The notes beneath the pieces were generated by a model. The model was not told where the DNA came from, did not search any database, and saw only the letters and a list, made by a program, of their open reading frames with translations. A stretch of 64,000 bases of DNA from sequence record OQ067374.1. One strand, 5' to 3'. The position numbers were made by a program, and so were the translations under genes. This document shows positions 3,019 to 51,973 of the stretch, in pieces. Numbering within the stretch: the first letter of the stretch is position 1; every line of letters begins with the position of its first letter. Source of the DNA: Escherichia phage a20.

Positions 3019-3028
3019 TATGTATTCC

Positions 3029-3730: not shown

Positions 3731-3737
3731 GTTTTGT

Positions 3738-3772
3738 GAGAAAAAAATGCACAAAAGGGAGCCGAAGCTCCC
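3738..3772 (-). terminator. rho-independent terminator after gene 52 (GC stem, UUCG loop, U-tract)
   Basis: gggagc-cgaa-gctccc hairpin preceded on plus strand by A-run (U-tract on minus-strand RNA). Confidence 0.7.
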
Positions 3773-3848
3773 TAATCATGTTTGTCTAACCAATACAGCC
3801 AAATCACTAGTACAGCTATTGCACCGAGAAATCCTAAGGCTAGGGCAC

Positions 3849-11121: not shown

Positions 11122-12222
11122 TTACGCTGTGAAGATTTTATCCCACATCGCAACAACTGCATCTCGGTTATACTTCTTCCATACTGCTTCAGCACGTTTA
11201 ACTCGAGCTTCGTATGTGTCAGTGAATTCTAATACAGCTTTTGTGTAAAGCGCAACTACTTCTTTCTTAGGAGTAGAGGAATCAATTTCTACACGCACAG
11301 TATCTGGGTCGTATTCGAATGTCGCATGAGGATAATCCTTAAAAACTAACTGGATTACAGGGACACCTTTAGAGATGGCTTCAATAGAACTATTCTCTAC
11401 CGTACCTGTGTCAGGACACGTATTAATAAGTGCTTTAGCCGTTTTAAGACGTTCCATGATTTCACTGTGTGGAGCATCAATAATAACAGGATATTTAGCT
11501 GGTGGTGCCCATTTACTAGGACAGTATCCTACACCATTTTCGCCTAGTGCTTTAATCGCTTCAAGAGCAACATCAGTACGACGCATTTTAGTGTCATAAC
11601 GTTGTGCACTAATAATCAGATCAGTCGCCGGAAGAACTTCAGGTTTCTCATTCAAACAAATAACCGGATAATCTTCGGCTTCAAACAACGGATTTGCTCG
11701 CCAATAATCATAATCGATTTTGTCAGTCAGACCTGAAGTCATATAACAATATTTGCGTTCAAATTCACGGAAGGCTTTAGTAGGAGCATAACTCTTACCG
11801 CCATTCTTATGAATTTGAATAGTCTGGTCCCAAATTTGAACAATGCCACGAGATACTGGTTCAAATGGTGTTGCCATAAAATTCTTATGAACTTTAGAGA
11901 GACCTGCGTCTTTAATTGCCTGAACGGTTAGTTTAGTCGGTTCCATAGTAACAACAAAATCGTATTCATGGATGCCGGCTAGTTCAACAATCTTACGAGC
12001 CATAGTATAACTCATACCTAGACTGAATTTAGTCAGATGACCAACAGGATGGTGTGTAACTTTCCAGTCACCAAACATGTCATTATCAAAGCCGATATAA
12101 TCAATATCGGCACCGATAGAAACTAAATATTTCAACACGTTCAAATGAACCGCTTCAAGACCACCTTGTACACGGTCAGGATTAAATGGGACTGCACGAG
12201 ATGGGATAAACATAACTTTCAT
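11122..12222 (-). CDS. putative GT-B fold glycosyltransferase (candidate DNA hmC sugar transferase)
   Basis: 366 aa; N-terminal MKVMFIP...GGLEAV...LVSIG and C-terminal ...ENSSIEAISKGVPVIQ motif typical of GT-B (GT4-like) enzymes; sits between rIIA.1 and gene 39 where T4 has gene 60/mobA. Confidence 0.55.
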   Translation of the reverse strand: MKVMFIPSRAVPFNPDRVQGGLEAVHLNVLKYLVSIGADIDYIGFDNDMFGDWKVTHHPVGHLTKFSLGMSYTMARKIVELAGIHEYDFVVTMEPTKLTVQAIKDAGLSKVHKNFMATPFEPVSRGIVQIWDQTIQIHKNGGKSYAPTKAFREFERKYCYMTSGLTDKIDYDYWRANPLFEAEDYPVICLNEKPEVLPATDLIISAQRYDTKMRRTDVALEAIKALGENGVGYCPSKWAPPAKYPVIIDAPHSEIMERLKTAKALINTCPDTGTVENSSIEAISKGVPVIQLVFKDYPHATFEYDPDTVRVEIDSSTPKKEVVALYTKAVLEFTDTYEARVKRAEAVWKKYNRDAVVAMWDKIFTA

Positions 12223-12235: not shown

Positions 12236-12266
12236 TAAAATTAAAATGAAGCTCCCGAAGGAGCTT
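12236..12266 (-). terminator. terminator-like hairpin overlapping the stop of the HNH gene
   Basis: aagctcc-cgaa-ggagctt with downstream U-rich tract on minus-strand RNA. Confidence 0.55.
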
Positions 12267-13062
12267 AGGACATCCAACACATTTTATAACCTTTGCAGGT
12301 TCTGTTAGGATTATTTAATGCTTTCAATATATTAGAAGACCCTATATCTAAATACTCTCTTAATTCATAAAGATAGTTAAAATCAATAGTTTCACCTGTT
12401 TTTACACTTGTGATTCTTATAGGCCTTCTTTCATATTTAGATTTATACAACTCTCTAGTCTTAGCTTTAGTTTCTTCCGACCTAGGAGTGTATGGTTTAA
12501 ATCCTTTTGTTTTAAATGTTTCCATTCTTGATTTAGTTATTTTATCCTGGTGTTCTTTTGTTTTTACAGGTGCTTTTCGCCCATTCTCCCAAGATAACTT
12601 GTTGGCCTGTATTATTTTATCTATTGCTTCTTGCGTATGAGTTTTACCATAAAATGGATTTAATTCGCCTATACGTTGTGAAGCAATATGTGACATTAAT
12701 TCTCTTGTTGCTTTAGTATGTTTTTTACCTTTAAATGGGTTGCCGTTTTTAGCAATCCATTCTTTCATAAATCTAGAGTGCTCTTTAGAGAATTCTTGTT
12801 TAAGCCAATCATAATCTCTAGAATTTCTAGCTCCCATGTAAAAAGCTCTAATAGCCATAAGCATAGAACGGTTCTTATGAATTTTATAAAGCAATAAATG
12901 GGCGATAAAATGCTCTCTAGGGGTCATTTTAACTAGATTTGATTTATCATTACTCCCACCCATAGATTTTGGCAATATATGATGTGTCTCAGTATAATTA
13001 GGAATAATGCTGCGGTTTTTAGCCGCAGCGATAAGTTTATCATAAATTTTACGATAATTCAT
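12265..13062 (-). CDS. HNH-family homing endonuclease (Mob-like) with NUMOD3-type repeats
   Basis: ...ETHHILPKSMGGSNDKSNLVKMTPREHFIAHLLLYKIH... plus repeated NPF(Y/K)GK(T/K)HT; start taken at MNYRKIY giving TAATG overlap with gene 39 stop. Confidence 0.8.
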   Translation of the reverse strand: MNYRKIYDKLIAAAKNRSIIPNYTETHHILPKSMGGSNDKSNLVKMTPREHFIAHLLLYKIHKNRSMLMAIRAFYMGARNSRDYDWLKQEFSKEHSRFMKEWIAKNGNPFKGKKHTKATRELMSHIASQRIGELNPFYGKTHTQEAIDKIIQANKLSWENGRKAPVKTKEHQDKITKSRMETFKTKGFKPYTPRSEETKAKTRELYKSKYERRPIRITSVKTGETIDFNYLYELREYLDIGSSNILKALNNPNRTCKGYKMCWMS

Positions 13063-33595: not shown

Positions 33596-34495
33596 TTATT
33601 CCTCGATTACGACATCTTCATATTTAGGTATATTATACGGTGAAGAAATTAAAGCATTAAAGTAGATGAACTCACCAAGACCTGGATGAAATACTTCTTC
33701 AGGATTTTCGAAATATTGAATCTTCGGACGTCCTTTAAGAATTTGATAGTATTCAGTTTTAGTTGGTTTAAAAATTCGAATCAACGCTTCTTCAGGATAC
33801 TTATTTCTGTCGAAGCTATTATTTGGATCGGTTATATAAAGCGGTTGGCCTAATTGAATTGCACATTCAACCACTTGTTCAAAACGATAGCATGGGTCAC
33901 TAATTCGAAATGGATGAAAAATACCATCTAGATGAATAGGAGCCAAATCACCTACAAGACGCTGCATGATGGAAGGACGTATAACTTTCTGCGTTACGAT
34001 AATCTTATTACCATCTGCACCTGCGTTAACCAGCACTTCTTTTTGACGTTCATTCAACACAGTAGTTTGAAGTGAACGATTAACCGACAACATATCGGTT
34101 TTTAAGAATTCGTCAATATAAAAACGTGGTTTATTAGGGTCTGCAGTGATATTGAAATTGAATTCTACATCAAAAGCGCCGTCATATCCGGTGATATCTG
34201 TGATTAGAAAATCACAATCATAATAAGCAATTAATGAATCAACCACAAATTCATTTTCAGTCCAGAAATATTTACGAGTGTTATACGCGTTATCTTTATA
34301 CCATAATGGAACAAACTTAAATTCTGGGAAAAGACGTTCACATTCTTTAATATCAGATGCATTACGTGGATATGTAATCACATCACCTGGATTAGCACGG
34401 TGCAAATGAAGTTGGAAGTTGCCATCCTTAAGGATAGCATACTGCCCAGTTTCATAAGACCGCATACTCAAAATAGGTACGCGGAAAATAGCCAT
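33596..34495 (-). CDS. protein of unassigned family occupying the T4 beta-glucosyltransferase position (candidate DNA-modifying transferase)
   Basis: 299 aa; no motif recognised; adjacent to the hydroxymethylase; T4 has bgt between uvsX and 42. Confidence 0.5.
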   Translation of the reverse strand: MAIFRVPILSMRSYETGQYAILKDGNFQLHLHRANPGDVITYPRNASDIKECERLFPEFKFVPLWYKDNAYNTRKYFWTENEFVVDSLIAYYDCDFLITDITGYDGAFDVEFNFNITADPNKPRFYIDEFLKTDMLSVNRSLQTTVLNERQKEVLVNAGADGNKIIVTQKVIRPSIMQRLVGDLAPIHLDGIFHPFRISDPCYRFEQVVECAIQLGQPLYITDPNNSFDRNKYPEEALIRIFKPTKTEYYQILKGRPKIQYFENPEEVFHPGLGEFIYFNALISSPYNIPKYEDVVIEE

Positions 34496-35211
34496 TAGTC
34501 AAGGAATCCTTTAACATAATCAAAATCACGTTCAAACACATGGGCACTTACCATGGTATGAGTATAATCACCAACTTCTACACCACATTCGTTAGCGATA
34601 TAATGAAGTAATTTTCCTTGGAGATAAAAATCCAACTGCATAACAACAGCACAGTTCTGAGAACGCATATGACAGTGGGTATAAAGCTTACCATCACGAA
34701 TATAATAAGTCACTGAGTCAGTACATGGATATTCAAGAGTTTCGTCCGAATCAAGCAAAGCCTGATCAGAACTTTCTAGAATTTGGAACACAACTCTTCG
34801 AGAGTTAGGCTTCTCTTTAAGTTCTTTTAGAAGAGCTGGTAATTGGGCCGCAATGCGAGGACCATAGAAAGTGTTGAAGTTCGCCGGCAAAACATCTGAT
34901 TTTGGTTTAGAAATAAATTTAGCGACATTAGGATATGCCTTAAACGCTTCTTCTGCGTTGGTACCACCAGAAATCATAAACTTCCAGAAGTCTTCGGCAT
35001 ATTCATAAGAGATGCGGTTAATACGTGGGTCAGTCATTTTGAATGATGATGGAGTGTCAACAACTACTGTCATAGACCCAATTTCATTACAACGTCCAAT
35101 ACGAGAATCAGTTACGAATTCCGGGTTTTCTAAAATTTCACGATTGACTGCTTTAAATGCGGTTTGAAAATCTGCGGCTTTGATATATTTCATTGTGTTA
35201 TGTTTTCCCAT
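34495..35211 (-). CDS. 42: thymidylate-synthase-superfamily pyrimidine hydroxymethylase (gp42-like, divergent)
   Basis: 238 aa; ...KPNSRRVVFQI...EYPCTDSVTYYIRDGKLYTHCHMRSQN... (catalytic Cys context and R-S-x-N/D region of TS/dCMP-HMase fold); position of T4 gene 42. Confidence 0.7.
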   Translation of the reverse strand: MGKHNTMKYIKAADFQTAFKAVNREILENPEFVTDSRIGRCNEIGSMTVVVDTPSSFKMTDPRINRISYEYAEDFWKFMISGGTNAEEAFKAYPNVAKFISKPKSDVLPANFNTFYGPRIAAQLPALLKELKEKPNSRRVVFQILESSDQALLDSDETLEYPCTDSVTYYIRDGKLYTHCHMRSQNCAVVMQLDFYLQGKLLHYIANECGVEVGDYTHTMVSAHVFERDFDYVKGFLD

Positions 35212-35253: not shown

Positions 35254-35493
35254 TTATTTGAATTTCTTAGCGATGTTGATATAACGTAAAGCTTCAGCAT
35301 CGATACTTCCAAGAACACTATGAAGAAATGCATCAGCGTAGTATTCCAATTGAACAGGTTCTTTAATCACTTTAGCCGCTTTGGTTCCAAACAGGCCCAT
35401 AAGGGCCTTTTTAAGAATTTGTTCATTAGTGTTCAGTTTCATAGTCAAAATCTCTTCATTAAGTTGGTGGTTAAAAGTTTTTCTAGAAATCAT
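35254..35493 (-). CDS. hypothetical small protein
   Basis: ORF track, 79 aa. Confidence 0.45.
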   Translation of the reverse strand: MISRKTFNHQLNEEILTMKLNTNEQILKKALMGLFGTKAAKVIKEPVQLEYYADAFLHSVLGSIDAEALRYINIAKKFK

Positions 35494-36650
35494 TCTGGGT
35501 ACCTCAAAGCGTCATCAGAGTTAGTTATATCAATAATAGATATAGAATTTTCTGATAACCCATTTTTAGATAACTGACGTTTATAATATCTTTCACAATA
35601 TGTACACGTCGTCCCGCAGATTTCATTAGCACAATCGAAATCTGGATGTCTGAACCACCTTTTTTCTAAAAAGCCATCTAACAAAGAGGTTTCAATATTT
35701 ACTGTATGTGAAAACTCAGTTTCGTTTTCAAGAGTGAAAATAGTCTCTAAAGGCTTCCACAGTTCTAACAAATTACCTTCAAACTTTTCAGAAGCGTATG
35801 CTTCAAGAACTTTCAAAATGTAGTCTGTGCTACCTGTACGTCCTGAAACTTTGAATTGAGTGATACCAATATCATTATAAAGTTTCAAATCTTGAGGACG
35901 AACAAAACGAGTTCTCAACCAGTTAAATGGGTCTGTATCACGAGCTTTAATGCAGTGTTGCATTGGATATCCGTTTAAGGATTTAGCATCATCAGCTGTA
36001 ACATCAGTACTATGGAAAATATAGCAAGAGTCACGATAGCTACAATGTGTTGTATACCCTTTACCAGCATTAGAACAGAACTCATTTACAAGAACTTCAA
36101 ATATTATATTGTTCTTATTGCAAAACTCTGCTGCACGCTTCAGGAAAGAAACTGAACGGTTCTTATGAATTCCACAGCAGACCTTTTTGATATTATATTG
36201 GTCATGCAAGTATTTGATTTGAGTTACAGCATCGACATGTAGAATTGTTGAAACTTCAATCTCAATGTCTTTATTGACTTCACGAACAATTTCCATAACA
36301 ACAGGGTTAGCGATAGTAATACGCCATACGCCTATTGACCAAAGATACTGAACATAATCCTGAATAGCTTTCTTCTTCCACTCAACTAGTTCTCTTTTTG
36401 AACCAGGATTTATCGTGTTGAGTGTATAGTTAAAGCAAATACCTAATTCGTTACAACGTTTAACGTAATCTTCTAACATCTTTTTGTCAACGTCAGGAAG
36501 CCTAAAATCAGGTCTGGCTGCTACAAAAGCCATTTCTCTTGTAGAGCCGTATACTTCGTTTATCAAGCTATTAGGATAAGTTTTATTGAGCTCTACGATT
36601 TTATCAAGAAGAGCTAAATCAAAATTCGTTCCAATTTTAAAAGTATTCAT
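35490..36650 (-). CDS. Cys-rich putative Fe-S enzyme of unassigned family
   Basis: 386 aa; clusters KKVCCGIH, EFCSNAGKGYTTHCSYRDSCY and C-terminal DCANEICGTTCTYCERYY (contains a CxxxCxxC spacing). Confidence 0.5.
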   Translation of the reverse strand: MNTFKIGTNFDLALLDKIVELNKTYPNSLINEVYGSTREMAFVAARPDFRLPDVDKKMLEDYVKRCNELGICFNYTLNTINPGSKRELVEWKKKAIQDYVQYLWSIGVWRITIANPVVMEIVREVNKDIEIEVSTILHVDAVTQIKYLHDQYNIKKVCCGIHKNRSVSFLKRAAEFCNKNNIIFEVLVNEFCSNAGKGYTTHCSYRDSCYIFHSTDVTADDAKSLNGYPMQHCIKARDTDPFNWLRTRFVRPQDLKLYNDIGITQFKVSGRTGSTDYILKVLEAYASEKFEGNLLELWKPLETIFTLENETEFSHTVNIETSLLDGFLEKRWFRHPDFDCANEICGTTCTYCERYYKRQLSKNGLSENSISIIDITNSDDALRYPE

Positions 36651-36707
36651 TTTTTTTGCATCTCACGTTAATTGATGCGATGGTTTTTGCAGGTCTTACT
36701 TAAATTA

Positions 36708-37097
36708 TTATAGATTCGGTTTATATGATTTAAATGTTTCGAATTCGCCTTTATTCATAAGAGCTTTGAATTCGTCAGGACGCATAGCTTTGTCGTCGAT
36801 AATCCAATCATATACTGGTTTATGTGTTAGCAAATTATGGTACTTCAAACCAATGTTTTCCAAGTTCTGAATCAGACTTGGGAGAATGTCAATTGCTATA
36901 CGTCCAGGACCTACTGACTTCATACCGCGAGCAGTGTAAAGCGTTATGGTATGCCCTGCATCATACAGAGCATTAATAGCAGTCACCATTTCGACGTCTG
37001 GTTTGAAGTTCACGTAATCACGATTGTTATTCCACTCTGTTATACAATCATCGACGTCCACGCAAAGATGTAATGGTTTCATAGCAATATCCTTCAA
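36708..37097 (-). CDS. small HAD-superfamily phosphatase
   Basis: 129 aa; motif I LCVDVDDCIT (DxDx[T/V]), ITLYTAR, and K...IIDD; start may be the ATG 15 nt downstream. Confidence 0.6.
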   Translation of the reverse strand: MKDIAMKPLHLCVDVDDCITEWNNNRDYVNFKPDVEMVTAINALYDAGHTITLYTARGMKSVGPGRIAIDILPSLIQNLENIGLKYHNLLTHKPVYDWIIDDKAMRPDEFKALMNKGEFETFKSYKPNL

Positions 37098-37809
37098 TAG
37101 AATTTTTAATATTATCAGCTATACGCTTTCTAGGAATACCCGTTTTCTTTTCAGCTATCCTAAGAGATTCATAGTAATTTTCGTTTATTTTAACAAATTT
37201 TTGAGACTTGTGAGCATTTTTGCTTTCGTCCTGATATCGATAATTAAGATATTTAGGCGATTTTACTCTCTTTTGAATCGTGGCAGAAGATATACCCAAA
37301 TCTTTAGCCGCTTCCCGACAGGATTCATAATATTTGCCATCTACATTAATCTTTAGACCATGTAATGCAGGTTTACCATACCTCCTGTGCTTTTCTTTAC
37401 CCCTAGCTATAGATTCAGCTGACAAAGTTTTACCCCATCTTGGGTTTTTATCACCAACTAAACGTCCTTTATTTGCCTTAGAAATTTTATCCTTGGACCT
37501 TTGGGATAACCCGTCAGAACCGCCTTCGCCACCAGTTTTAAGATTGTAATAATTTGGGTCTTTAACTATGTCTAATGTTATTAGAGCCTTTTCAGCTATT
37601 TTTAATTCTTCTCTCGAGCTATGGTAGGAAATGATTTCTTTAAGAAAATTTTCCTTCCCGTATTTCCTTTCAGCCTTTTTATATAATTTACCAGAACCTT
37701 TATATAAATCTAAAGGCTCGGCTTCTTCAGCCGAGTGCATTCCTAAATAAACTTTACCGTTTATAAGATTAGTAGTTTTGTAGAGATAATGTATCAAATT
37801 CGTTCCCAT
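37048..37809 (-). CDS. GIY-YIG homing endonuclease (Seg-like)
   Basis: 253 aa; N-terminal HYLYKTTNLINGKVYLGMHS...YKGSG (GIY-YIG module), basic DNA-binding C-terminal region; overlaps both neighbours. Confidence 0.8.
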   Translation of the reverse strand: MGTNLIHYLYKTTNLINGKVYLGMHSAEEAEPLDLYKGSGKLYKKAERKYGKENFLKEIISYHSSREELKIAEKALITLDIVKDPNYYNLKTGGEGGSDGLSQRSKDKISKANKGRLVGDKNPRWGKTLSAESIARGKEKHRRYGKPALHGLKINVDGKYYESCREAAKDLGISSATIQKRVKSPKYLNYRYQDESKNAHKSQKFVKINENYYESLRIAEKKTGIPRKRIADNIKNSIEGYCYETITSLRGRR

Positions 37810-39479
37810 TGATGAGTGATATCGCCACCGATTGGACGATAGGAAACACCAGTTTCTTTATCAGTTAGTACCCATTTACCAGGATTTTTTGTAATCAGAG
37901 TAGCCGTTACAGGTTCTGCTACGTCATAACTAATAGAGCCGTCTTGAAGTACACGGCCCATATTACGTAATTGCTTAGTCAGAAGTTCCATACCTTTATA
38001 ATATGCGGCTACCGCTTTAAGTGGATTATTCTTGAAATAACCACCTAATGCAATCCAGATAATTGCCACTGCCAAATGATGATACTCGTTAAACGAACTC
38101 ATCTTTCCATATTTGTAAACTAATGGATTGATGTTAATAGTCACATTACAAGTTGTTTCATCAATAGTAAACTGTCCCCAGGTCGGATTAGCATTGAATT
38201 CATCATAACCTGAAACAGCATAAAGCACTTTAGCTTCATCATACAATTTTGGCCCGTAAATCTTGGTTTCGCCAAAATATCCACGAGGGTCGATAAACTT
38301 AACTTCGCCGTTATCAGTAATCATAGTATTACTGAAGTTCGGGTCACCATGAATAACAGAGTACTGTCCCTGAGAACGGTTATGATAACGAATAAGATGT
38401 TCTAAAGCTTGTTTCAGCATTGGCTTCAGACGTCCAATCTTAGTGTAGTTCACATGTGTGATTTTACCAAATGAATCAATCAATGGTTGAATGCTTTCAC
38501 AACGATCAATAACTTTCGTATAGAATTCTTTAGTGAAATCACGACGAACAGTTTCAGGACTTACAAAATAAGTGTCTGTGCTGAATTTCAGTGCATCTAA
38601 AATTGTATCAACAATTTGTGGACGAGCAAGACTTGATTTGGATTTAATATATTCAAATGCCGGCTTACCTTTAATGCGTTCCATTTCAAAGTTATTTTCA
38701 TTAACAGAAACTAACTGAGGGACTGAATCTGATTTCACTTTCAAATACCACGAAATCTCATCTTTCTGAAGAGCTCGGCCCTGTTCGGTTAATGCGAATT
38801 TAGTTACAGTTTCTTCACCGATTTCAACTGCATTAAAACTACGATTAAGTTCACGAACTTCATGAGCTTTTTCAAGTTTAGGCATATCACCTAAATCAAT
38901 TAGATTCATAAGCTCTGATTTATTGAATGCGCCGCTGTAAAGGAATTCTACGAAATCACGTCCTTTGCAGTATTCATGAATTTCTTCATCAGTAGAACCC
39001 ATATAGAATTCCCAGTCTTTGAACTGATAAATTCCTACAACATTACCACCTGTTGAACCTACGTTAGTGATATTTTCACCGTCGAAATTATATCGACATT
39101 CGTCGCCCTTAACATAGATTGCGTTAACATTCCAAGACCATGAACCAAAATCGGGAATAATATCACACCAGTTAACAATTACATTATGGCCGTCTAAATC
39201 TTTGTGTAATTTAGCAAGAGCATAAGCAGATCCATACGCTTCATCAACTGTACGAATAGTCACATTGAACCCTTCTTGCTCACAATAAGCTCGAACAGTT
39301 TCAGCAAATTTTGAATGAACTACTACAATAATTTCATCTGCGCCTAGGTCAGAATAAATTGTATACAAATTGCTCAGAATAGTGTCTTGTTTATAGTTAA
39401 CAAGCACCTTAGGAATATGGTGAGTAATTGGATATAAACGAGTTGCCAGTCCAGCACCAAGAATAACAGCTTTTTTCAT
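37794..39479 (-). CDS. bifunctional sugar-1-phosphate nucleotidyltransferase (N-terminal) / APH-ChoK-type kinase (C-terminal)
   Basis: 561 aa; N-term MKKAVILGAGLATRLYPIT...PKVLV (G-x-G-x-x-R-L nucleotidyltransferase signature, LicC/RmlA-like); C-term HGDPNFSNTMIT...VKFIDPRGY (Brenner HxDxxxxN and DxxG of aminoglycoside/choline kinase fold). Confidence 0.7.
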   Translation of the reverse strand: MKKAVILGAGLATRLYPITHHIPKVLVNYKQDTILSNLYTIYSDLGADEIIVVVHSKFAETVRAYCEQEGFNVTIRTVDEAYGSAYALAKLHKDLDGHNVIVNWCDIIPDFGSWSWNVNAIYVKGDECRYNFDGENITNVGSTGGNVVGIYQFKDWEFYMGSTDEEIHEYCKGRDFVEFLYSGAFNKSELMNLIDLGDMPKLEKAHEVRELNRSFNAVEIGEETVTKFALTEQGRALQKDEISWYLKVKSDSVPQLVSVNENNFEMERIKGKPAFEYIKSKSSLARPQIVDTILDALKFSTDTYFVSPETVRRDFTKEFYTKVIDRCESIQPLIDSFGKITHVNYTKIGRLKPMLKQALEHLIRYHNRSQGQYSVIHGDPNFSNTMITDNGEVKFIDPRGYFGETKIYGPKLYDEAKVLYAVSGYDEFNANPTWGQFTIDETTCNVTININPLVYKYGKMSSFNEYHHLAVAIIWIALGGYFKNNPLKAVAAYYKGMELLTKQLRNMGRVLQDGSISYDVAEPVTATLITKNPGKWVLTDKETGVSYRPIGGDITHQWERI

Positions 39480-39520
39480 GTTGTGGTCCTCATTGGTAAG
39501 TAGGAGTATTGTACACTATT

Positions 39521-39664
39521 CTAGTTAAAGCATTCATACTTTGCTTGTAGTCCAATCATAATCCATCCAATTACAAGTGTTGGAATCATTACCGGAGCCG
39601 TTAAGCTCCAGTAGATAGTCATGACAAGCATCAATAGTAAAAGTCCTATTGCTATTGCTTTCAT
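39521..39664 (-). CDS. small hydrophobic membrane peptide (47 aa) between the sugar-isomerase gene and the fused kinase gene
   Basis: Hand-translated MKAIAIGLLLLMLVMTIYWSLTAPVMIPTLVIGWIMIGLQAKYECFN; TAATG overlap with SIS gene stop; imm-like position. Confidence 0.4.
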   Translation of the reverse strand: MKAIAIGLLLLMLVMTIYWSLTAPVMIPTLVIGWIMIGLQAKYECFN

Positions 39665-40296
39665 TATTCGCCTCGTAACATGGCACCTAGTGCACCACCA
39701 GGGTGGAACTTAAGGAAATCATTAGAGGTAAATCCACGTTCAGACGAAAGGTTGATAGCAAACGTATCGATAAGCGCTAACAACAATGTAGTGGACATAG
39801 TCGGAGCCAGAGAATTCTCATCAACCTCTACTGCGATGCCTGTACAGAAAGAGTAATCAAAAAGGGCTTCATTTTCTTGTGGAATGTCTGGGTTACAATG
39901 CAACAGAATCTGTTTGACGTTCGGACGAATCATTTTAAGATGCTTAGCCACGCCTATCATTTCTTCAGTTTTACCAGAACGACTAATATGAATCAACACA
40001 TCATTAGGCGCAATGAATCCTGCATCACCGTGAGAATAATGCCCAGTGTTCAAGTACATACTCGGGATACCTAGTGAAGCAAAAGTCTCGGAAGCTTTAG
40101 TTGCGATATTAGCATTCTTACCAACACCTGTAATAATTACTCGGCTTTCATAATTACTAAGTCCCGGGCGTCGAAGAGTTTCTAGAATAGCATTATAACG
40201 AGCAGGGTTTTGACTAATTACTTTGGCCATAGCGGCCAAAGAAGAAGCTTGTTTTATGATTGCGTCAATAGCGATAGTAATAGGAGTAGTTTTCAT
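39664..40296 (-). CDS. single-domain SIS sugar-phosphate isomerase, KdsD/GutQ-type (arabinose-5-phosphate isomerase-like)
   Basis: 210 aa; VIITGVGKNANIATKASETFASLGIPSMYLN...SHGDAGFIAPNDVLIHISRSGKTEE...LAPTMSTTLLLAL...GFTSNDFLKFHPGGALG closely parallels KdsD core motifs; lacks CBS domains. Confidence 0.8.
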   Translation of the reverse strand: MKTTPITIAIDAIIKQASSLAAMAKVISQNPARYNAILETLRRPGLSNYESRVIITGVGKNANIATKASETFASLGIPSMYLNTGHYSHGDAGFIAPNDVLIHISRSGKTEEMIGVAKHLKMIRPNVKQILLHCNPDIPQENEALFDYSFCTGIAVEVDENSLAPTMSTTLLLALIDTFAINLSSERGFTSNDFLKFHPGGALGAMLRGE

Positions 40297-40336
40297 ATTT
40301 CTCTCATTTAATTAGTTTACCGTCCATGGCATTATA

Positions 40337-46261: not shown

Positions 46262-46453
46262 TTATTCGTAGAAGTCGGTAACTGTCCATGCGGAATTGCG
46301 ATTAGACATTATTTTATTATACTCATCTTTAAAAGCAGATTTGAGCATTTGTTCAGTAACAATATGTTCTTCACCTGAAAACGTATTGGTCAAAACATAT
46401 CTTTTAATTTCAGGGACAACGAGAAGATGTTGTCCGGTTGAATACTCCGCCAT
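46262..46453 (-). CDS. hypothetical small protein (45.2 position)
   Basis: ORF track, 63 aa. Confidence 0.45.
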   Translation of the reverse strand: MAEYSTGQHLLVVPEIKRYVLTNTFSGEEHIVTEQMLKSAFKDEYNKIMSNRNSAWTVTDFYE

Positions 46454-46530
46454 TATAAATCTCCGTGATTAAAGCAATATAAATAGGTTTATCAATTTAT
46501 CTGTTGCTGTATCAAATAAGGATTTAGTAA

Positions 46531-47247
46531 ATGAATTATAACTCAATATACGAAAAGCTTATCACCAATGCTAAATCAAGAAGTTTAGATGGTTATACAG
46601 AACGTCATCACATTATACCACAATGTTTAGGTGGAAGTGATGATGCTTTAAACTTAGTAGACTTAACACCGGAAGAACATTATTTGGCACATCAACTGTT
46701 GGTAAAAATCCATCCAGATAATGCCTCTTTAATATATGCCGCTCGTATGATGACCATATCATCTCCTAAAGCAGATAGAAGCAAAAACAAATTATTTGGA
46801 TGGCTTCGACGTAAGAATCAAGAAGTTCAAAAGAATAAAGAATTCACTGCTGAAACCCGTAAGAAAATGTCCGAGTCTGCAAAAAATAAACCAAAGATTA
46901 CCTGTCCACATTGTGGTTTAACTGGAACTGAAGGAAACATGCGACGTTGGCATTTTGATAATTGTAAACAAGGTCCAACGCCTAAAATAGTAAAACTTGA
47001 TCAAGAAACAAAAGATAAAATAATTAAAACCATGGCCACGAAAATTTGGAAAGAAGATTCTTGCCCGTTTTGTGGCTTAACTACTAAGTTATCGGCGTTA
47101 AAGCCACATATAAAATTCTGTAAATCAAATCCTAACAGAAAGAAAAAAGAGGACAAGAAAATTAAATGTCCTCATTGCGATAAAATAGGGATCCCTGCTA
47201 ATATGCATCGTTGGCATTTCGATAATTGTAAATATAAGCCTCATTAA
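46531..47247 (+). CDS. HNH-family homing endonuclease with three C-terminal CxxC...C zinc-finger repeats, plus strand
   Basis: 238 aa; ...YTERHHIIPQCLGGSDDALNLVDLTPEEHYLAHQLLVKIH...; repeats CPHCGLTGTEGNMRRWHFDNCK / CPFCGLTTK / CPHCDKIGIPANMHRWHFDNCK; SD AAGGA; convergent with gene 46. Confidence 0.8.
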   Translation: MNYNSIYEKLITNAKSRSLDGYTERHHIIPQCLGGSDDALNLVDLTPEEHYLAHQLLVKIHPDNASLIYAARMMTISSPKADRSKNKLFGWLRRKNQEVQKNKEFTAETRKKMSESAKNKPKITCPHCGLTGTEGNMRRWHFDNCKQGPTPKIVKLDQETKDKIIKTMATKIWKEDSCPFCGLTTKLSALKPHIKFCKSNPNRKKKEDKKIKCPHCDKIGIPANMHRWHFDNCKYKPH

Positions 47248-48932
47248 GAGGCTTTCATTACAGTAAATCGTCCAACTTTGCTCATTTGAAGATGTTGTCC
47301 ATAAGCTTGTGGGTCATGGTCTCTGTGACTAATTATAAACACGTTTGCATCGGTTAGAGAGTTAAGAATTGTTGAAATAGCTTTAATACCTTCAGAATCA
47401 GTCGCGGAATCCATGACTTCGTCCATAATTAATGTATTGATTCTAACGCCAGAGACCTTTTCAGCGATATCTCGCCATGTAAACAACAATGCGATATCGA
47501 TACGTGCCTTTTCACCTTGACTAAACGAAGCATAACTGAATTCTTCACGTCCACGTGATTTTATAGATTCATTGAATTCTTCGTCAATAGAAAACACATA
47601 ATCAGCTTCCATGATTTTAAGATAATGGTTAATCTGCTTGTTGAACAGAGGCACATATTTTTTAATGATAGCACCTTTAATACCAGAATCTTTTAACATA
47701 TCTGTGATAATACCGCGATGGTATTTTTCAAGAACGATATCCGATTTTGTTTTAATGATTTTATCAAGTTCTTTTTGAAGCAAAGCTATCTCATCGGCAT
47801 GGTCGATAAATTCCGCCGAGGCTTGTTCTATTGCAGCTTTAACTTTCTTAGCTTTATCAATAGTGGCAATCATTGCTTGTTTCTTGGTACGAATATCAGA
47901 TGCAAGGTCCTGTTTAGTCTTAACATTAGCTCTATATTCGTCCACTAGGACACTCAGATTATCTCTGTGACATGTAAGTTGCTCGAATGAGTGATTACAT
48001 TCGTGAAGCTTATCGGTAATCTTAGAGACAATAGGATCACCCTGGTGCAACTGTGATGCACAAGTAGGACATGTACCGCCATCATGATACATCTTAATAA
48101 CTTTGTTATATGAGTCAATTTTAGATTTAATCAAGAATGCTTCTTGTCCTATCTTGTTGAATGCCTCAGTAGGGTCTTCGTCAAGAACGATATTAAGTAG
48201 ACGCTCGTTAGCTTCTTCGATTTCTGCTTTTAATGAACGAGCTTCTTTGGCTAGGTCGTCATACATATTCTGTAGACGCGCTACATTATCACCAGATAAT
48301 TTCTTTTGGCGTTCGATATTCTCGTTATAAATCTTAATTTGTTGGATAACACCATCTTTCTTGGCATCGAGAACTTGTCCCTGGGAATTAAGTTCTCGAA
48401 CTTGAGACTTATTGATTTTATCCATTTCAGCGAGTGTGCCGACTTCTAAAAGGTCTTCGACAAGTTTTCTACGAGCAGGGGTGCTAAGAGCCATGAAAGG
48501 GGTATACCCTGCCGTCCCAAGCACAACGATTTGTTTAAAAGACGCGTATGACATTCCGATGCTACGTTCAAATTCTTCTTGGAAGTCACGACTGCTGGCA
48601 GATTCATCAAGACGAACACCGTCAACGGAGATTTCGAAAATATTGGGCTTTTGGCCACGTCTAATGAAGTATTTTTTATCATCGAATTCCATCCAAAGCT
48701 CAACTAAGAGCTCTTTCTTGTTCGTGCTATTAATGATTTGTCCTTTCTTAACATCACGAAATGGTTTACCGAAAAGTCCGAAAGTAATGGCTTCTAACAT
48801 CGTAGATTTACCACCGCCATTTTTACCAGTGATTAATGTCTTTTGGACTTTATCTAATTGGATATCAATAGGATTCCCACCTACCGACATGATGTTTTGA
48901 TAACGAACACGATTTAATTTAAATGATTTCAT
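47244..48932 (-). CDS. 46: recombination endonuclease subunit gp46 (Rad50/SbcC-like ATPase)
   Basis: 562 aa; Walker A GKNGGGKST, long coiled-coil middle, zinc hook CPTC, signature SGGE-like and Walker B LIMDEV. Confidence 0.9.
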   Translation of the reverse strand: MKSFKLNRVRYQNIMSVGGNPIDIQLDKVQKTLITGKNGGGKSTMLEAITFGLFGKPFRDVKKGQIINSTNKKELLVELWMEFDDKKYFIRRGQKPNIFEISVDGVRLDESASSRDFQEEFERSIGMSYASFKQIVVLGTAGYTPFMALSTPARRKLVEDLLEVGTLAEMDKINKSQVRELNSQGQVLDAKKDGVIQQIKIYNENIERQKKLSGDNVARLQNMYDDLAKEARSLKAEIEEANERLLNIVLDEDPTEAFNKIGQEAFLIKSKIDSYNKVIKMYHDGGTCPTCASQLHQGDPIVSKITDKLHECNHSFEQLTCHRDNLSVLVDEYRANVKTKQDLASDIRTKKQAMIATIDKAKKVKAAIEQASAEFIDHADEIALLQKELDKIIKTKSDIVLEKYHRGIITDMLKDSGIKGAIIKKYVPLFNKQINHYLKIMEADYVFSIDEEFNESIKSRGREEFSYASFSQGEKARIDIALLFTWRDIAEKVSGVRINTLIMDEVMDSATDSEGIKAISTILNSLTDANVFIISHRDHDPQAYGQHLQMSKVGRFTVMKAS

Positions 48933-49183: not shown

Positions 49184-49412
49184 TACACGCTTCAGCCATT
49201 TTAAGAATAGAGCCAGGAGTATCGTTGTCCATTATATTAAAGCTAAATTCAATAGCCCAGTCGGTGCAGACATGAACTGCTTTAACTTCATTGCCTTCAA
49301 CGCGTAATGGCTCAATCCAATACTTGATAGTGTTCTCGAATCCATCATCATCTTTAACGTCCATTTCAACTTCAAGCCTGAGTCCAGCATTGTTAAATTC
49401 ATCTAAAGTCAT
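49155..49412 (-). CDS. hypothetical small protein (46.2)
   Basis: ORF track, 85 aa. Confidence 0.45.
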   Translation of the reverse strand: MTLDEFNNAGLRLEVEMDVKDDDGFENTIKYWIEPLRVEGNEVKAVHVCTDWAIEFSFNIMDNDTPGSILKMAEACIEDAYNDED

Positions 49413-50428
49413 TGTGTTGCCTCAATATAAAGTTCGTTGGAATATTTGACCAGCGCTTCTCTGTCTTCGTCTGAGATATCTGGAATCGCGTCAATATATT
49501 CTTTAATGATATCTTGAAGTGATTTAATCTCGATTTCCTGGTCGTCATCAGATTCAACACTGTTATCAACTTTAGAAACCATACGAAGAGAGTGAACTAC
49601 TTTTTCAAGTTCAGATTCAAACTTAGTCAACTCTGAATCAATTTCTGATACTATAACACGTACAGCTAGATTAGTATAATCAGAATAATTGATTTTGCCT
49701 TTAAACGGATAAGTGATTCGTCGATGCCATGTTGTTTCATTAGGAATAAATTCCATACGTTCAACATCAGTGTCAAATACCCAGAATCCGCGCGGGTCGT
49801 TCTCATCACCTGCAGTAAGGGTCCATGGTGTCCCAATATATTTGACGTTAGCAGCTTCAGAGATTGTGTGGAAGTGGCCAGACCAGACTTGTTTATAAGT
49901 CTTTAAGAAATCAGGTTCAAGCCCATGAGACTTCATCCCTTTATAGAAATAAAAGCCATTCAGTTCCCAGTGCCCAACACAATACGCTGCAGAAGAAGTC
50001 TTGATGTGCTCTAAGATTTCACCTGTATTTTCTTCACACATCCATGGAACGATATCAATCAGACATCCGTCAAAATCTACAGTAGTTGGATGCTCGTAAA
50101 TAGTAAAGTTTTCAAATTGAGTTAACAATTCAGAAACAGTGTTAGGTGTTATTGTATTCTTAAACGCCATGTCATGGTTTCCTATCGTGACATGAACGTG
50201 AATGCCTGCTTTAGAAATCATATCAACGATTTCACGATTGAATTCCATTGTACGATGTGTTATTGCTTTACGGACGTCGAACCAATCACCGTACTGAATC
50301 CAAGTTTTAATCCCGTGTTTCTTAGAGTATTCAATTGCTTGACGAATACCATCACGTTGAATATCTTGAACCCATGGGTCGTCTTGTTTGACTCCGATAT
50401 GGAAGTCGCCTAAGTGCAAAATTTTCAT
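49409..50428 (-). CDS. 47: recombination nuclease subunit gp47 (Mre11/SbcD-like phosphoesterase)
   Basis: 339 aa; MKILHLGDFHIG..., GDWFD, GNHD, calcineurin-like phosphoesterase motifs. Confidence 0.9.
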   Translation of the reverse strand: MKILHLGDFHIGVKQDDPWVQDIQRDGIRQAIEYSKKHGIKTWIQYGDWFDVRKAITHRTMEFNREIVDMISKAGIHVHVTIGNHDMAFKNTITPNTVSELLTQFENFTIYEHPTTVDFDGCLIDIVPWMCEENTGEILEHIKTSSAAYCVGHWELNGFYFYKGMKSHGLEPDFLKTYKQVWSGHFHTISEAANVKYIGTPWTLTAGDENDPRGFWVFDTDVERMEFIPNETTWHRRITYPFKGKINYSDYTNLAVRVIVSEIDSELTKFESELEKVVHSLRMVSKVDNSVESDDDQEIEIKSLQDIIKEYIDAIPDISDEDREALVKYSNELYIEATQ

Positions 50429-50466
50429 ATTATTTCCTCATTAGTTAATTCATTTTATCATCCGTT

Positions 50467-50499
50467 TATAAAGCAAAAAAGGAACTCCGAAGAGTTCCT
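50467..50499 (-). terminator. rho-independent terminator upstream of gene 47
   Basis: aggaactc-cgaa-gagttcct with aaaaaa on plus strand (U-tract on RNA). Confidence 0.65.
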
Positions 50500-50671
50500 A
50501 TCCACATAGTACACCGTACAGAGGCTCATTTGAACTTTTAAATCGAATGGGCTTGTACGTAATAGTTCCTTCGGCTTTAGCTTTATCATAAGACTCTTTA
50601 AAACGTCTCGTTCTTTCTGCTTTGCCTTTACGGATTTTATCGAAATTTTCAGAAGTCGGGATGTTCGTCAT
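50498..50671 (-). CDS. possible small basic protein (57 aa)
   Basis: Hand-translated MTNIPTSENFDKIRKGKAERTRRFKESYDKAKAEG...; SD GAGAGGTG; approx coordinates. Confidence 0.35.
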   Translation of the reverse strand: MTNIPTSENFDKIRKGKAERTRRFKESYDKAKAEGTITYKPIRFKSSNEPLYGVLCG

Positions 50672-50710
50672 GCATAAGCACCTCTCAGAAAATGCCTAAA
50701 TCAATTTCTC

Positions 50711-50932
50711 TCATCGTTTCCACCATTTCTTAACTTGAAATGAATCGACCCACACGAGTTGTTTTGGGTCTGCCTTTACAATAGGCGGACAAATTTCTGT
50801 AATAGAACCGTCGTGATATTCCTTTTCAGAAATTTTAACACAAAGAGGACCTCCCAATTTAAGGGTGAACCCTGCGTTCAGCTTCAGACGTTTAAACTTT
50901 GTTTGAACTAGCGCCATTAATGATGTCCTCAA
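50711..50932 (-). CDS. hypothetical small protein
   Basis: ORF track, 73 aa. Confidence 0.45.
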   Translation of the reverse strand: MRTSLMALVQTKFKRLKLNAGFTLKLGGPLCVKISEKEYHDGSITEICPPIVKADPKQLVWVDSFQVKKWWKR

Positions 50933-51215
50933 TAGCCTGACGAGTAGTAACCCACTGGATTTTAATTAACTTGTCATTATATGGTTGTCGTAGAATATCC
51001 CGAGATTTCTTAATAGCATATTCGTAAGCTTCGAAGTTGTTTTGAATTGCTGCTTCTTGAGCATGAGCATAAAGACGGTTTAGTTCAAAACGATTCTTTT
51101 TAAGAATCTTTTCGGATTTTTTACGTGCTTCAGCTTCATTTTTCTTTTGGATTTCTTGTAGCATTTTAGCTACTGCATCTTCTGCTTCTTTATTTTCAAT
51201 AATCTCGGTAGTCAT
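50892..51215 (-). CDS. hypothetical protein (coiled-coil, Lys/Glu-rich)
   Basis: ORF track, 107 aa. Confidence 0.45.
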   Translation of the reverse strand: MTTEIIENKEAEDAVAKMLQEIQKKNEAEARKKSEKILKKNRFELNRLYAHAQEAAIQNNFEAYEYAIKKSRDILRQPYNDKLIKIQWVTTRQAIEDIINGASSNKV

Positions 51216-51216
51216 A

Positions 51217-51510
51217 TTATCTCATTAAATTAAAATAAAAACGTCCATCCTCTTCAATACAGAACTCATACTCAACCGGAGTCCCATTTATCGAAAATGA
51301 CACGTCATGTGGGTTCAAAGGGTCGATGTCAAAATTAATTTTAAATTCACGACCCAACAGTTTTACCAAATAAGGGATTGCTTCGTCAAAAGGTTCTTCT
51401 AAGTAGTTAGAGATGTCAATTGTCATCCTCATATAAAAAATCCAAACTAGGCGAATCGCTAACAACTTCCTTCTTTTCAGCCCCAGGAGCTTTATAAGCG
51501 GATTCTTCAT
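51217..51510 (-). CDS. hypothetical small protein; start uncertain, overlaps 3' end of gene 55 in every candidate frame start
   Basis: ORF track, 97 aa; internal ATGs at about 51432/51426. Confidence 0.35.
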
Positions 51511-51973
51511 AATGCGTCATTTTATCGTAGATGTCTTGAATAAACGTTTCATCTACCAACGCTACCATATCATCGTCATGACTGTCGTAGACATTATGAA
51601 CGAAGTAACTATATTTCTTTGCAACTTCCTTACGTTCTTTTTTGATACGTTGGACAAAAGCATTAAAACAAGCTCGAGTTATGTATGCATGTGGGTTATT
51701 GTACTTAGTTTCGTCGAAATTATGAAGTCCCTTAATAGAGGCTTCAATCCCATCTGCAATCATCTCCTGCTTCCAAGACTGGGTATATCCTGAAAAGTTG
51801 AAACGTTTGGACAGGCCTTCGGCGATAAGCATAATTGCTAAACCGATGGTATCATTCTGACGAATAATTTTGTTTGGGTCTTTATTATTTAAGAGCTCCT
51901 TTTTCCACTCGATTATAGCGGCGAGAAGCTCTTTATTATTCACATAGTTATTTTTAGGTTTTTGTTCAGTCAT
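51416..51973 (-). CDS. 55: late-transcription sigma factor gp55
   Basis: 185 aa; [26 protein letters not shown]...; same length as T4 gp55; strong SD. Confidence 0.9.

Follow-up and report, generated by a model that had tools for sequence, protein, structure and literature searches.

An a-gt-less slot between genes 47 and 55 in an RB69-group T-even phage

In phage T4, genes 47 and 55 flank the alpha-glucosyltransferase gene a-gt, as the gene order confirms (47, 47.1, a-gt, mobB, a-gt.2 to a-gt.5, 55; RB14 has the same order without mobB). In Escherichia phage a20 (sequence record OQ067374.1) the same flanking genes enclose about 1 kb with small open reading frames only. This raises the question of whether a glucosyltransferase was lost from this site, and whether its absence says anything about the sugar carried on the phage DNA. 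We analysed a stretch of 64,000 nucleotides, hereafter the window. Very probably the locus consists of an a-gt.5-a-gt.2 block and a single PmSL-type (stem-loop plus middle promoter) module, with no a-gt, in a genome with an RB69-like arabinosyl pathway.

The interval between genes 47 and 55

The window belongs to a Mosigvirus genome, that is, to a T-even phage of the RB69 group. The segment from gene 47 to gene 55 has a contiguous match in 146 phage records (best 99.3%), all of those inspected being Mosigvirus, and NicPhage is 99.2% identical to the window over this segment. The interval itself (50429-51416) aligns without gaps to RB69 39992-40979 (NC_004928) at 98.2% nucleotide identity, with 18 substitutions, and RB69 has the same four genes in the same order and the same terminator. 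The window differs from RB69 in three homing-endonuclease insertions elsewhere, missing from RB69, and in an intact 299-aa gene (described below) that is split into two ORFs, 046c and 047c, in the RB69 record. The genes of the segment are as follows.

49409..50428, minus strand: gene 47 (SbcD-like recombination endonuclease subunit), bounding the slot downstream
50498..50671, minus strand: a-gt.2 orthologue, 57 aa, DUF5486; 74% identity to T4 a-gt.2
50711..50917, minus strand: a-gt.3 orthologue, 68 aa; 71% identity to T4 a-gt.3
50892..51215, minus strand: a-gt.4 orthologue, 107 aa, DUF2654; 60% identity to T4 a-gt.4
51217..51432, minus strand: a-gt.5 orthologue, 71 aa, DUF5491; 48% identity to T4 a-gt.5
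51416..51973, minus strand: gene 55 (late sigma factor), bounding the interval upstream

The gene 47 product is 76% identical to T4 gp47 over 339 aa (PHROG 100, E = 1.6e-135), and the gene 55 product is 91% identical to T4 gp55 (PHROG 234, E = 4e-68). The longest ORF of the interval is 107 aa. An initial annotation had described a terminator and four small ORFs without a transferase, and ORFs, hairpin and homology searches all confirm this content. Its layout needs two corrections: the last 17 nt of gene 55 also belong to the fourth ORF, and the first bases of the hairpin overlap the stop codon of the first ORF, a-gt.2.

All four small ORFs match T4 counterparts (E = 3e-27 to 3e-18; PHROGs 2140, 1648, 951 and 1169), and the RB69 RefSeq record names them a-gt.2, a-gt.3, a-gt.4 and a-gt.5. 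The a-gt.2 protein is 96.5% identical to its RB69 counterpart and the other three are 100% identical to theirs; Pfam assigns a-gt.2 to DUF5486 (E = 1e-26), a-gt.4 to DUF2654 (E = 1e-27) and a-gt.5 to DUF5491 (E = 1.4e-12), and a-gt.3 matches PHROG 1648 (E = 2e-34). For a-gt.3, an ATG with a GAGGA ribosome-binding site gives 68 aa and an upstream TTG gives 73 aa; the mechanical ORF of a-gt.5 is 97 aa, with its start further upstream, within gene 55. The genes are tightly packed, overlapping or abutting, each with its own ribosome-binding site, and they follow gene 55 directly, ordered and oriented as in T4. They form a single minus-strand block (a-gt.5, a-gt.4, a-gt.3, a-gt.2) directly downstream of the late-sigma gene.

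These genes do not fill the a-gt site, as had first been supposed, but are orthologues of genes that in T4 lie between a-gt and 55. The position matching T4 a-gt is instead the 69-bp spacer at 50429-50497, between a-gt.2 and 47; no ORF of ~400 aa lies between those two genes, just this spacer. The a-gt.5 to a-gt.2 block is present in most sampled Tevenvirinae, and since its genes are kept in alpha-glucosyl, beta-glucosyl and arabinosyl lineages alike, a tie to any particular sugar is unlikely. PDB sequence searches with the four small proteins gave nothing below E = 0.7, and NCBIfam covers neither these four nor the two transferases described below; Pfam has no family for a-gt.3 or either transferase. 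A full-text literature search on 'a-gt.2' to 'a-gt.5' found no papers.

Glucosyltransferases and the arabinose genes

Searches for a-gt, b-gt and ba-gt covered the 64-kb window and the complete genome of ChristianSchoenbein, a relative with 94-98% identity, and none of the three genes was detectable in either; for a-gt and b-gt this agrees with the initial annotation. Comparison of the interval by blastp, tblastn and blastx with a-gt of T4 and of Mineola, T4 b-gt and RB14 ba-gt revealed no similarity. The best tblastn E value for a-gt was 2.6 in the window and 0.066 in the full ChristianSchoenbein genome, where the match pairs T4 a-gt residues 18-86 with an unrelated 200-aa ORF and was dismissed as noise. 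For b-gt and ba-gt the best values in the window were 2.5 and 0.31, and the full ChristianSchoenbein genome gave nothing significant. Additionally, 47.1 was found neither in the window nor in that complete genome, and the 69-bp spacer has no a-gt remnant.

RB69 and NicPhage DNA carries mono- and di-arabinosylated 5-hydroxycytosine (PMC6024577, PMC13326640, PMC13390438); the modified base in the RB69 group is now reported to be 5-hydroxycytosine and not hydroxymethylcytosine. All named components of this RB69-type arabosyl (arabinosyl) 5-hydroxycytosine system (Thomas et al. 2018, PMC6024577; Lee et al. 2026, PMC13326640) are present in the window, at 98-100% protein identity and in the same genomic positions.

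11122..12222, minus strand: RB69 ORF003c/gp3 orthologue, putative second (beta) arabinosyltransferase; 98.9% identity to RB69p003
33596..34495, minus strand: 299-aa RB69 gp46:47 orthologue, putative first arabinosyltransferase; 98-100% identity to the RB69p047 and RB69p046 halves
34495..35211, minus strand: thymidylate-synthase-family enzyme, RB69 gp48 (5-hydroxy-dCMP synthase) orthologue; 99.2% identity to RB69p048
35490..40296, minus strand: pentose (putative UDP-arabinose) biosynthesis cluster, from Pfam and relatives' annotation

The 299-aa gene lies, by synteny, at the T4 b-gt position, between uvsX and the gene 42 homologue. The claim that both gt genes had been lost is thus overstated for b-gt, whose T4 position is not empty but holds the match to RB69 gp46:47. 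A role for gp46:47 as putative first arabinosyltransferase has been proposed (PMC13326640), and its fold assignment is also published; our single-sequence AlphaFold2 model of the ORF was too poor for use (mean pLDDT 36, pTM 0.24). The ORF003c orthologue is found outside the interval, next to rIIA, and its match in the PDB is 9iqz ('Glycosyltransferase subfamily 4-like N-terminal domain-containing protein'; E = 3e-250); an arabinosyltransferase role for RB69 ORF003c/gp3 was proposed in PMC6024577 and PMC13326640. In the literature, the entry codes 9IQZ and 9IR0 led to nothing but chemistry papers on other subjects. The gp48 orthologue (99.2% over 238 aa; Pfam Thymidylat_synt) has only 25% identity to T4 gp42, and 5-hydroxy-dCMP synthase activity has been shown for RB69 gp48 (PMC13326640).

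Flanked by the ThyA homologue and gene 43, the pentose cluster runs colinearly with its RB69 counterpart (97-98%). It encodes a U32-like protein, a phosphatase, a nucleotidyltransferase/kinase fusion and a SIS isomerase (Pfam matches Peptidase_U32, NTP_transferase plus kinase-like, and SIS), for which a pathway has been proposed (PMC13326640, Table 1). Nothing substantive sets the window apart from the RB69-type system; a GIY-YIG homing endonuclease gene (37048-37809) splits its pentose cluster.

On the basis of the 98-100% protein identity to RB69, we infer that dCMP would be converted to 5-hydroxy-dCMP by the thymidylate-synthase homologue (34495-35211), and that 5-hydroxycytosine would be arabinosylated once or twice by the GT-B-type glycosyltransferases at 33596-34495 and 11122-12222, with a sugar donor supplied by the pentose cluster (35490-40296). 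The arabinosyltransferases' order of action and substrates are proposals of PMC13326640, which reports no single-enzyme activity on 5hoC DNA. The window phage DNA is thus predicted to be free of glucosylation by a-gt or b-gt, and its identity to RB69 and NicPhage points to arabinosyl chemistry.

Could an alpha-glucosyltransferase nonetheless be present in another form? One of the small ORFs might be a glycosyltransferase fragment or miniature, or the interval might encode a cryptic transferase. The one similarity pointing this way joins window a-gt.5 to a-gt residues 317-342, over 26 aa and at 22.7 bits; its E value is 2.7 at realistic database size, and the a-gt.5 proteins of T4, Mineola, JS10 and X20 have no a-gt match among the top-scoring pairs. 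Six-frame blastx of the interval is empty, and Pfam places three of the four proteins in DUF families and none in a glycosyltransferase family. Because T4 and Mineola have a full-length a-gt alongside all four small genes, these cannot be deletion remnants. At the level of sequence this reading is already refuted, and we give it next to no chance. Relocation of a true a-gt orthologue to another part of the genome is also very improbable. Two GT-B-type enzymes are indeed encoded elsewhere, RB69 ORF003c is remotely related to T4 a-gt by HMM/HHpred (E = 1.9e-24 to PDB 1XV5; Thomas et al., PMC6024577), and PDB 9iqz is described as GT4-like. However, tblastn gave no similarity at E <= 0.05 in the window or the relative's full genome, ORF003c does not preserve the a-gt residues that contact glucose (PMC6024577), and the DNA sugar of RB69 and NicPhage is arabinose, not glucose. 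The two enzymes are fold-level relatives with another donor and acceptor, and not a-gt genes that have moved.

A probable stem-loop and promoter module at the slot

The spacer that takes the place of a-gt contains two sequence elements, the first of which reaches into the end of a-gt.2.

50480..50499, minus strand: predicted intrinsic terminator hairpin with a C(UUCG)G tetraloop, from terminator scan, RNA fold and relatives' annotation
50452..50475, minus strand: MotA-type middle-promoter-like site (TGCTTTA, 11 nt, TAAAAT), from pattern search

Read on the minus strand, the hairpin (50499-50480) is AGGAACTC-TTCG-GAGTTCCT, followed by TTTTTT (T-run at 50474-50479). Its RNA fold has an energy of -13.9 kcal/mol (z = -3.3), and it is annotated as a rho-independent terminator in a 99.3% identical relative; the motif suggests that it functions as an intrinsic terminator. 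The MotA-type pattern occurs 19 times in the window, where chance would give 2.3, and the site in the slot is colinear with the modules of T4, RB14, JS10 and X20. Downstream of it are a GAGGA ribosome-binding site and the gene 47 ATG, and its agreement with the consensus suggests promoter activity. The T4 late-promoter motif (TATAAATA) is absent from the interval, and Rfam at gathering thresholds found no family in the whole window. A plus-strand terminator-like hairpin at 50768-50790 was rejected: it falls within the a-gt.3 gene but on the strand that is not transcribed, and two such hairpins were found against 1.6 expected.

The a-gt.2 to a-gt.5 block would end at the C(UUCG)G hairpin, and the MotA box with its -10 element would act as a middle promoter restarting transcription into genes 47, 46.2, 46.1 and 46. 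Together they probably constitute a 'stem-loop + middle promoter' (PmSL-type) module, one of the composite PeSL/PmSL terminator-promoter modules described in T4-like phages (Arbiol et al. 2010, PMC2839356; Comeau et al. 2014, PMC4122927). A PmSL is defined as a stable stem-loop followed directly by a promoter with a Mot box TGCTT and a properly spaced -10 (PMC4122927). In the window, too, a stem-loop is directly followed by a promoter-like site of the Mot-box middle type. As in the published modules, the site lies exactly at an indel between related genomes, and in genomes that have a-gt the cassette lies between two stem-loop elements. In contrast to those modules, the window site is within a conserved replication/recombination gene block, not a hyperplastic region. 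Recombination between such modules, with mini-circle formation, was studied in PMC2839356 by inverse PCR on infected cells. The first stem-loop of Mineola is without an obvious promoter behind it.

The window module aligns colinearly with the modules at T4 a-gt.2|mobB and JS10 a-gt.2|47.1. In T4, as in the window, the flanking genes and four small genes keep the same order, and a stem-loop and MotA-box module directly follows a-gt.2. T4 then has ~2.2 kb extra (mobB, a-gt, a second stem-loop/promoter module and 47.1), whereas in the window the module runs straight into gene 47, at whose ATG homology with T4 picks up again.

Gain or loss of a-gt across T4-like phages

Among the sampled lineages, a-gt was in the slot only in Tequatrovirus and Jiaodavirus, between two stem-loops; its distribution spans about 500 Tequatrovirus-like records and 143 Klebsiella/Raoultella records, and Mineola (Jiaodavirus) has it in the same slot as T4. 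Seven sampled lineages have an empty slot. Besides the RB69 group, a-gt is missing there from Dhakavirus, Gelderlandvirus, Winklervirus, Karamvirus, Krischvirus and an Acinetobacter T4-like phage; JS10, STP4-a, X20, Pet-CM3-4, Konradin and Aragogtheria all have the empty slot. Two stem-loops surround a-gt in T4, RB14 and Mineola, and one is present in the window, JS10 and X20. In Tequatrovirus and the Klebsiella Jiaodavirus, a-gt sits exactly at the stem-loop module (in T4 together with mobB, a homing endonuclease gene), and the window phage, like most sampled T4-like lineages, has a single module and no a-gt, with 47.1 missing too.

As the slot is equally empty in seven lineages, the 'loss' of a-gt claimed at the outset is not established. 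The accompanying proposal of a different DNA sugar chemistry matches what is published for RB69 and NicPhage, but the empty slot is no guide to it. Being the common state among T4-like phages, an empty slot is unusable for inferring sugar chemistry, and it gives no information on this point because STP4-a, whose slot is empty, has been reported with b-gt and ba-gt homologues (PMC6024577).

We consider it slightly better than an even chance that a-gt was never gained in this lineage: the single-module slot without a-gt would be ancestral and retained by Mosigvirus, and Tequatrovirus and Jiaodavirus would have acquired the a-gt cassette at the module already there, through insertion or lateral transfer. 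Along with the seven lineages with an empty slot, genes 47 and 55 are directly adjacent in cyanophages and Ackermannviridae. A neighbour-joining tree of gp47+gp55 makes T4 the sister of the window (100% bootstrap) and groups Mineola weakly with X20, which is without a-gt; this topology needs two gains, against one gain and at least four losses. The tree, however, rests on two genes, with weak deep nodes, and T4-like genomes are mosaic. Two stem-loops flank the cassette in T4, RB14 and Mineola, the module closest to that of the window is from JS10, a lineage without a-gt, and PeSL/PmSL-mediated insertion and excision are documented in T4-like phages (PMC2839356, PMC4122927). Against insertion stands the a-gt identity between T4 and Mineola (67%), which is close to that of the flanking gp47 (71%). 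Recent a-gt transfer is thus not apparent, and vertical descent fits equally well.

The same figures favour secondary loss, the view of the initial annotation, which we hold to be plausible and somewhat improbable. The common ancestor of Tequatrovirus and Mosigvirus would then have had a-gt, and Mosigvirus would have deleted a-gt and 47.1 by recombination between the flanking modules, after or while acquiring the arabinose pathway. Two genera that are not sisters have homologous a-gt genes at the identical position, diverged about as much as the flanking core genes, and direct repeats of the stem-loop plus GCTTTATA flank the cassette, which would ease excision. Since Mosigvirus is without the 47.1 that JS10, X20, STP4-a and T4 all have, some deletion at the 47/a-gt.2 junction did occur. 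However, loss of a-gt calls for at least four independent events on the sampled tree, and the spacer is free of any a-gt remnant. Lineages with b-gt and ba-gt homologues share the empty slot, so a loss of a-gt would be unlinked to a change of sugar. A bolder reading, to which we give a little below an even chance, makes a-gt a mobile cassette bounded by PmSL modules. Tequatrovirus and Jiaodavirus would have received it by insertion or exchange at the same module, with Mosigvirus keeping the unoccupied ancestral site.

The empty a-gt slot of the RB69 group is a correct observation, but an ordinary one and already described. Publications from 2018 onwards describe this group as using arabinose and lacking a-gt and b-gt, the RB69 record has carried names for the four small genes ever since its genome annotation, and work of 2026 specified the chemistry as arabinosyl-5-hydroxycytosine. 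The b-gt position is a slot for a glycosyltransferase, with its content exchanged and not lost. The precise point of a-gt insertion coincides with a stem-loop/middle-promoter module, which is consistent with the published cassette-shuffling model and testable. If a-gt is indeed a mobile cassette, the 'canonical' a-gt site of T4 would be derived, and cassette traffic at PmSL modules would have shaped which sugar T-even phages put on their DNA.

Gene content between genes 47 and 55

The interval between genes 47 and 55 (50429-51416, minus strand) contains a terminator and four small ORFs and no transferase, as the initial annotation described, with ORF starts here slightly corrected.

Features from gene 47 to gene 55
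49409-50428, minus: gene 47, 76% identical to T4 gp47
50499-50480, minus: terminator-like hairpin, AGGAACTC-TTCG-GAGTTCCT, then a T-run
50498-50671, minus: small ORF, 57 aa, a-gt.2 orthologue (74% identity to T4)
50711-50917, minus: small ORF, 68 aa, a-gt.3 orthologue (71%)
50892-51215, minus: small ORF, 107 aa, a-gt.4 orthologue (60%)
51217-51432, minus: small ORF, 71 aa, a-gt.5 orthologue (48%)
51416-51973, minus: gene 55, 91% identical to T4 gp55

T4 does carry its alpha-glucosyltransferase gene (a-gt) here, in the order 47, 47.1, a-gt, mobB, a-gt.2, a-gt.3, a-gt.4, a-gt.5, 55. Because the small ORFs are orthologues of T4 a-gt.2 to a-gt.5 (E from 3e-27 to 3e-18), names already used in the RefSeq record of the Mosigvirus RB69 (NC_004928), they are the usual neighbours of the a-gt site and not, as first proposed, its occupants. 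RB69 and the window share three of these proteins without a single difference. The four fall into Pfam DUF5486, DUF2654 and DUF5491 and four PHROGs of unknown function, and within the interval, where the longest ORF is 107 aa, no glycosyltransferase resemblance was found.

The possibility, raised initially, that a small ORF is a transferase fragment was rejected: T4, RB14 and Mineola (both T4-like phages) hold the small genes beside a full-length a-gt. The sole similarity to a-gt spans 26 aa (22.7 bits, E = 2.7 at realistic database size), and a-gt.5 proteins of other lineages show no a-gt match among top-scoring pairs. Searches for the four proteins found no PDB relative and no NCBIfam model, and a literature search found no paper naming a-gt.2 to a-gt.5. 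As the block occurs in alpha-glucosylating, beta-glucosylating and arabinosylating lineages, a role bound to one particular sugar is unlikely. The a-gt.2 proteins of Jiaodavirus (Mineola 3174-3431) and Winklervirus (X20 2878-3138) are ~85 aa long, with an N-terminal four-cysteine (CxxC...CxxC) extension missing from the 57-aa forms of Mosigvirus, Dhakavirus and T4.

In a search with the 2.6-kb stretch from gene 47 to gene 55, 709 phage records matched, 146 of them contiguously (best 99.3%), and the matching records inspected all belong to Mosigvirus, the RB69 group of Tevenvirinae; NicPhage is 99.2% identical over these genes. From position 8603 on, the window runs colinear with the first 45 kb of RB69 at 96.5-98% identity, three insertions excepted, and RB69 39992-40979 aligns to the interval ungapped at 98.2%. 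The complete 169-kb genome of the relative ChristianSchoenbein is 94-98% identical to the window. Downstream of endonuclease VII (pin region), 57902-58529 matches it at just 89% over 582 nt with flanks unaligned; neighbouring DNA is 95-98% identical, making this a local mosaic patch.

Transferases and DNA sugar chemistry

By tblastn, T4 a-gt, Mineola a-gt, T4 b-gt (beta-glucosyltransferase) and RB14 ba-gt (the T2-type gene) gave no significant match in the window or in the complete ChristianSchoenbein genome, which upholds the proposed absence of canonical transferase genes. In the phage collection, a-gt homologues comprise ~500 records at >=90% identity, matching Tequatrovirus, 143 at 60-80%, matching Klebsiella/Raoultella Jiaodavirus, and about ten distant ones; the roughly 150 Mosigvirus records fit in none of these bands.

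Candidate sugar genes in the window
11122-12222: glycosyltransferase candidate, RB69 ORF003c orthologue (98.9% identity)
33596-34495: glycosyltransferase candidate, 299 aa, RB69 ORFs 047c and 046c joined (98-100% identity)
34495-35211: gene 42 homologue, 99% identical to RB69 gp48 and 25% to T4 dCMP hydroxymethylase gp42

The first product matches PDB 9iqz, a 'glycosyltransferase subfamily 4-like' protein (E = 3e-250), and ORF003c has been described as a remote GT-B relative (Thomas et al. 2018, PMC6024577). The second is flanked by uvsX and the gene 42 homologue, the very place where T4 carries b-gt and T2-type phages ba-gt. It is one intact ORF here and two (ORF046c and ORF047c) in the RB69 RefSeq record, which agrees with the literature, where the RB69 split is put down to a sequencing error (PMC13326640).

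RB69 lacks a-gt, b-gt and ba-gt homologues and uses arabinose in place of glucose (Thomas et al. 2018, PMC6024577). Its modified base is mono- and di-arabinosylated 5-hydroxycytosine; the thymidylate-synthase homologue gp48 makes 5-hydroxy-dCMP, gp46:47 and gp3 are the proposed first and second arabinosyltransferases, and gp50-55 the proposed sugar-nucleotide pathway (Lee et al. 2026, PMC13326640). The identities of the gene 42 homologue fit this different product; older annotations of relatives still label its counterpart dCMP hydroxymethylase. The same nucleosides were found in Mosigvirus NicPhage (Durham Collection paper, PMC13390438). As window counterparts of the RB69 sugar-system proteins are 98-100% identical, the different sugar chemistry suggested initially is correct, and already established.

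The missing a-gt does not itself support that chemistry. Salmonella phage STP4-a also has an empty a-gt slot (the place between 47 and 55), yet b-gt and ba-gt homologues are reported for it (PMC6024577); thus, an empty slot is compatible with glucosylation and is no evidence for another sugar. Overall, the observation is confirmed, its interpretation is partly supported, and the finding is already known.

Origin of the a-gt-free junction

Small ORFs without a-gt also lie between 55 and 47 in JS10 (Dhakavirus), STP4-a (Gelderlandvirus), X20 (Winklervirus), Pet-CM3-4 (Karamvirus), Aragogtheria (Krischvirus) and Acinetobacter phage Konradin, and 47 directly adjoins 55 in several cyanophages and Ackermannviridae. 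Among the lineages inspected, only Tequatrovirus and Jiaodavirus carry a-gt in the slot.

The 69-bp spacer from a-gt.2 to 47 reads TAG-GAACTC-TTCG-GAGTTCC-TTTTTTGCTTTATAAACGGATGATAAAATGAATTAACTAATGAGGAAATAAT-ATG on the coding strand. Its C(UUCG)G hairpin (-13.9 kcal/mol, z = -3.3), whose first bases lie within the a-gt.2 stop codon, carries a rho-independent terminator label in the annotation of a 99.3% identical relative; it is followed by the T-run, a MotA-box-like TGCTTTA, 11 nt, TAAAAT, a GAGGA ribosome-binding site and the gene 47 start codon. With 19 window matches to TGCTTYA-N10-13-TANNNT where chance would give 2.3, this pattern behaves as a real signal class, and the site before gene 47 is predicted from the T4 MotA consensus to act as a middle promoter.

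This stem-loop/middle-promoter module is colinear with the T4/RB14 module 3' of a-gt.2 leading into mobB or a-gt, and aligns more closely with the JS10 module leading into 47.1. Homology to T4 is regained only at the gene 47 ATG; thus, the window lacks ~2.2 kb of T4 (mobB, a-gt, a second hairpin/promoter module and 47.1), of which no remnant was found at the junction. Two stem-loops bracket a-gt in T4, RB14 and Mineola, whereas the window, JS10 and X20 have one; this is the arrangement known from the literature as PeSL/PmSL composite terminator-promoter modules. When two of these recombine, the cassette between them is excised, as has been shown, and its insertion by the same route has been proposed (PMC2839356, PMC4122927).

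The initial annotation spoke of loss; the absence stands, but loss itself does not follow, the slot lacking a-gt in most lineages inspected. We lean slightly towards a Mosigvirus lineage without a-gt from the start. A neighbour-joining tree built from gp47+gp55 joins T4 and the window as sisters (100% bootstrap) and pairs Mineola weakly with X20, which lacks a-gt; on this topology, two gains compete with a history of one gain and four or more losses. However, a-gt is about as similar between T4 and Mineola (67%) as gp47 (71%) and hence bears no signature of recent transfer. Secondary loss in Mosigvirus, for which a repeat-flanked and easily lost cassette speaks, is possible but, given those four or more losses, somewhat less likely. 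Under either reading, 47.1 was removed from Mosigvirus by a junction deletion: no homologue was found in the window or a Mosigvirus relative. Unannotated ORFs upstream of 47 in X20 (~3205-3345) and STP4-a (~3457-3599) clearly encode homologues of 47.1, the T4 membrane peptide, with the motif ...RACWIGFFSTPDGFIS...

Homing endonucleases and slot plasticity

Three homing-endonuclease-like insertions are absent from both ChristianSchoenbein and RB69.

Insertions in the window
12277-13070 (ORF 12265-13077, minus): 270-aa HNH/NUMOD3 gene, 46% identical to the T4 MobB N-terminus, between the putative ORF003c-type arabinosyltransferase gene and topoisomerase gene 39
37074-37797 (ORF 37048-37809, minus): 253-aa GIY-YIG / I-TevI-type gene, SegA-like (45% identity), within the pentose-biosynthesis cluster between phosphatase and nucleotidyltransferase-kinase genes
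46449-47254 (ORF 46531-47247, plus): 238-aa MobB-like gene, 44% identical to the T4 MobB N-terminus, on the opposite strand between 45.2 and gene 46, with a perfect late-promoter motif TATAAATA just upstream (46478-46485)

In Escherichia phage AV115, a Mosigvirus, the slot (47/a-gt.3; 3001-4167) is filled by a 267-aa gene, likely a homing endonuclease, whose match to the GIY-YIG domain is weak (E = 0.005, below Pfam's cut-off). Its a-gt.3 is divergent, a-gt.2 is missing and the 5' part of gene 47 (the N-terminal third of gp47) is altered; this looks like a homing event in which the flanks were co-converted, for which such changes are expected. At this junction T4 has mobB, which encodes an HNH endonuclease; the slot is plastic. 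Only this is mildly new: a-gt is inserted right where a stem-loop/middle-promoter module lies, and among T4-like phages it is T4 whose arrangement is the exception.
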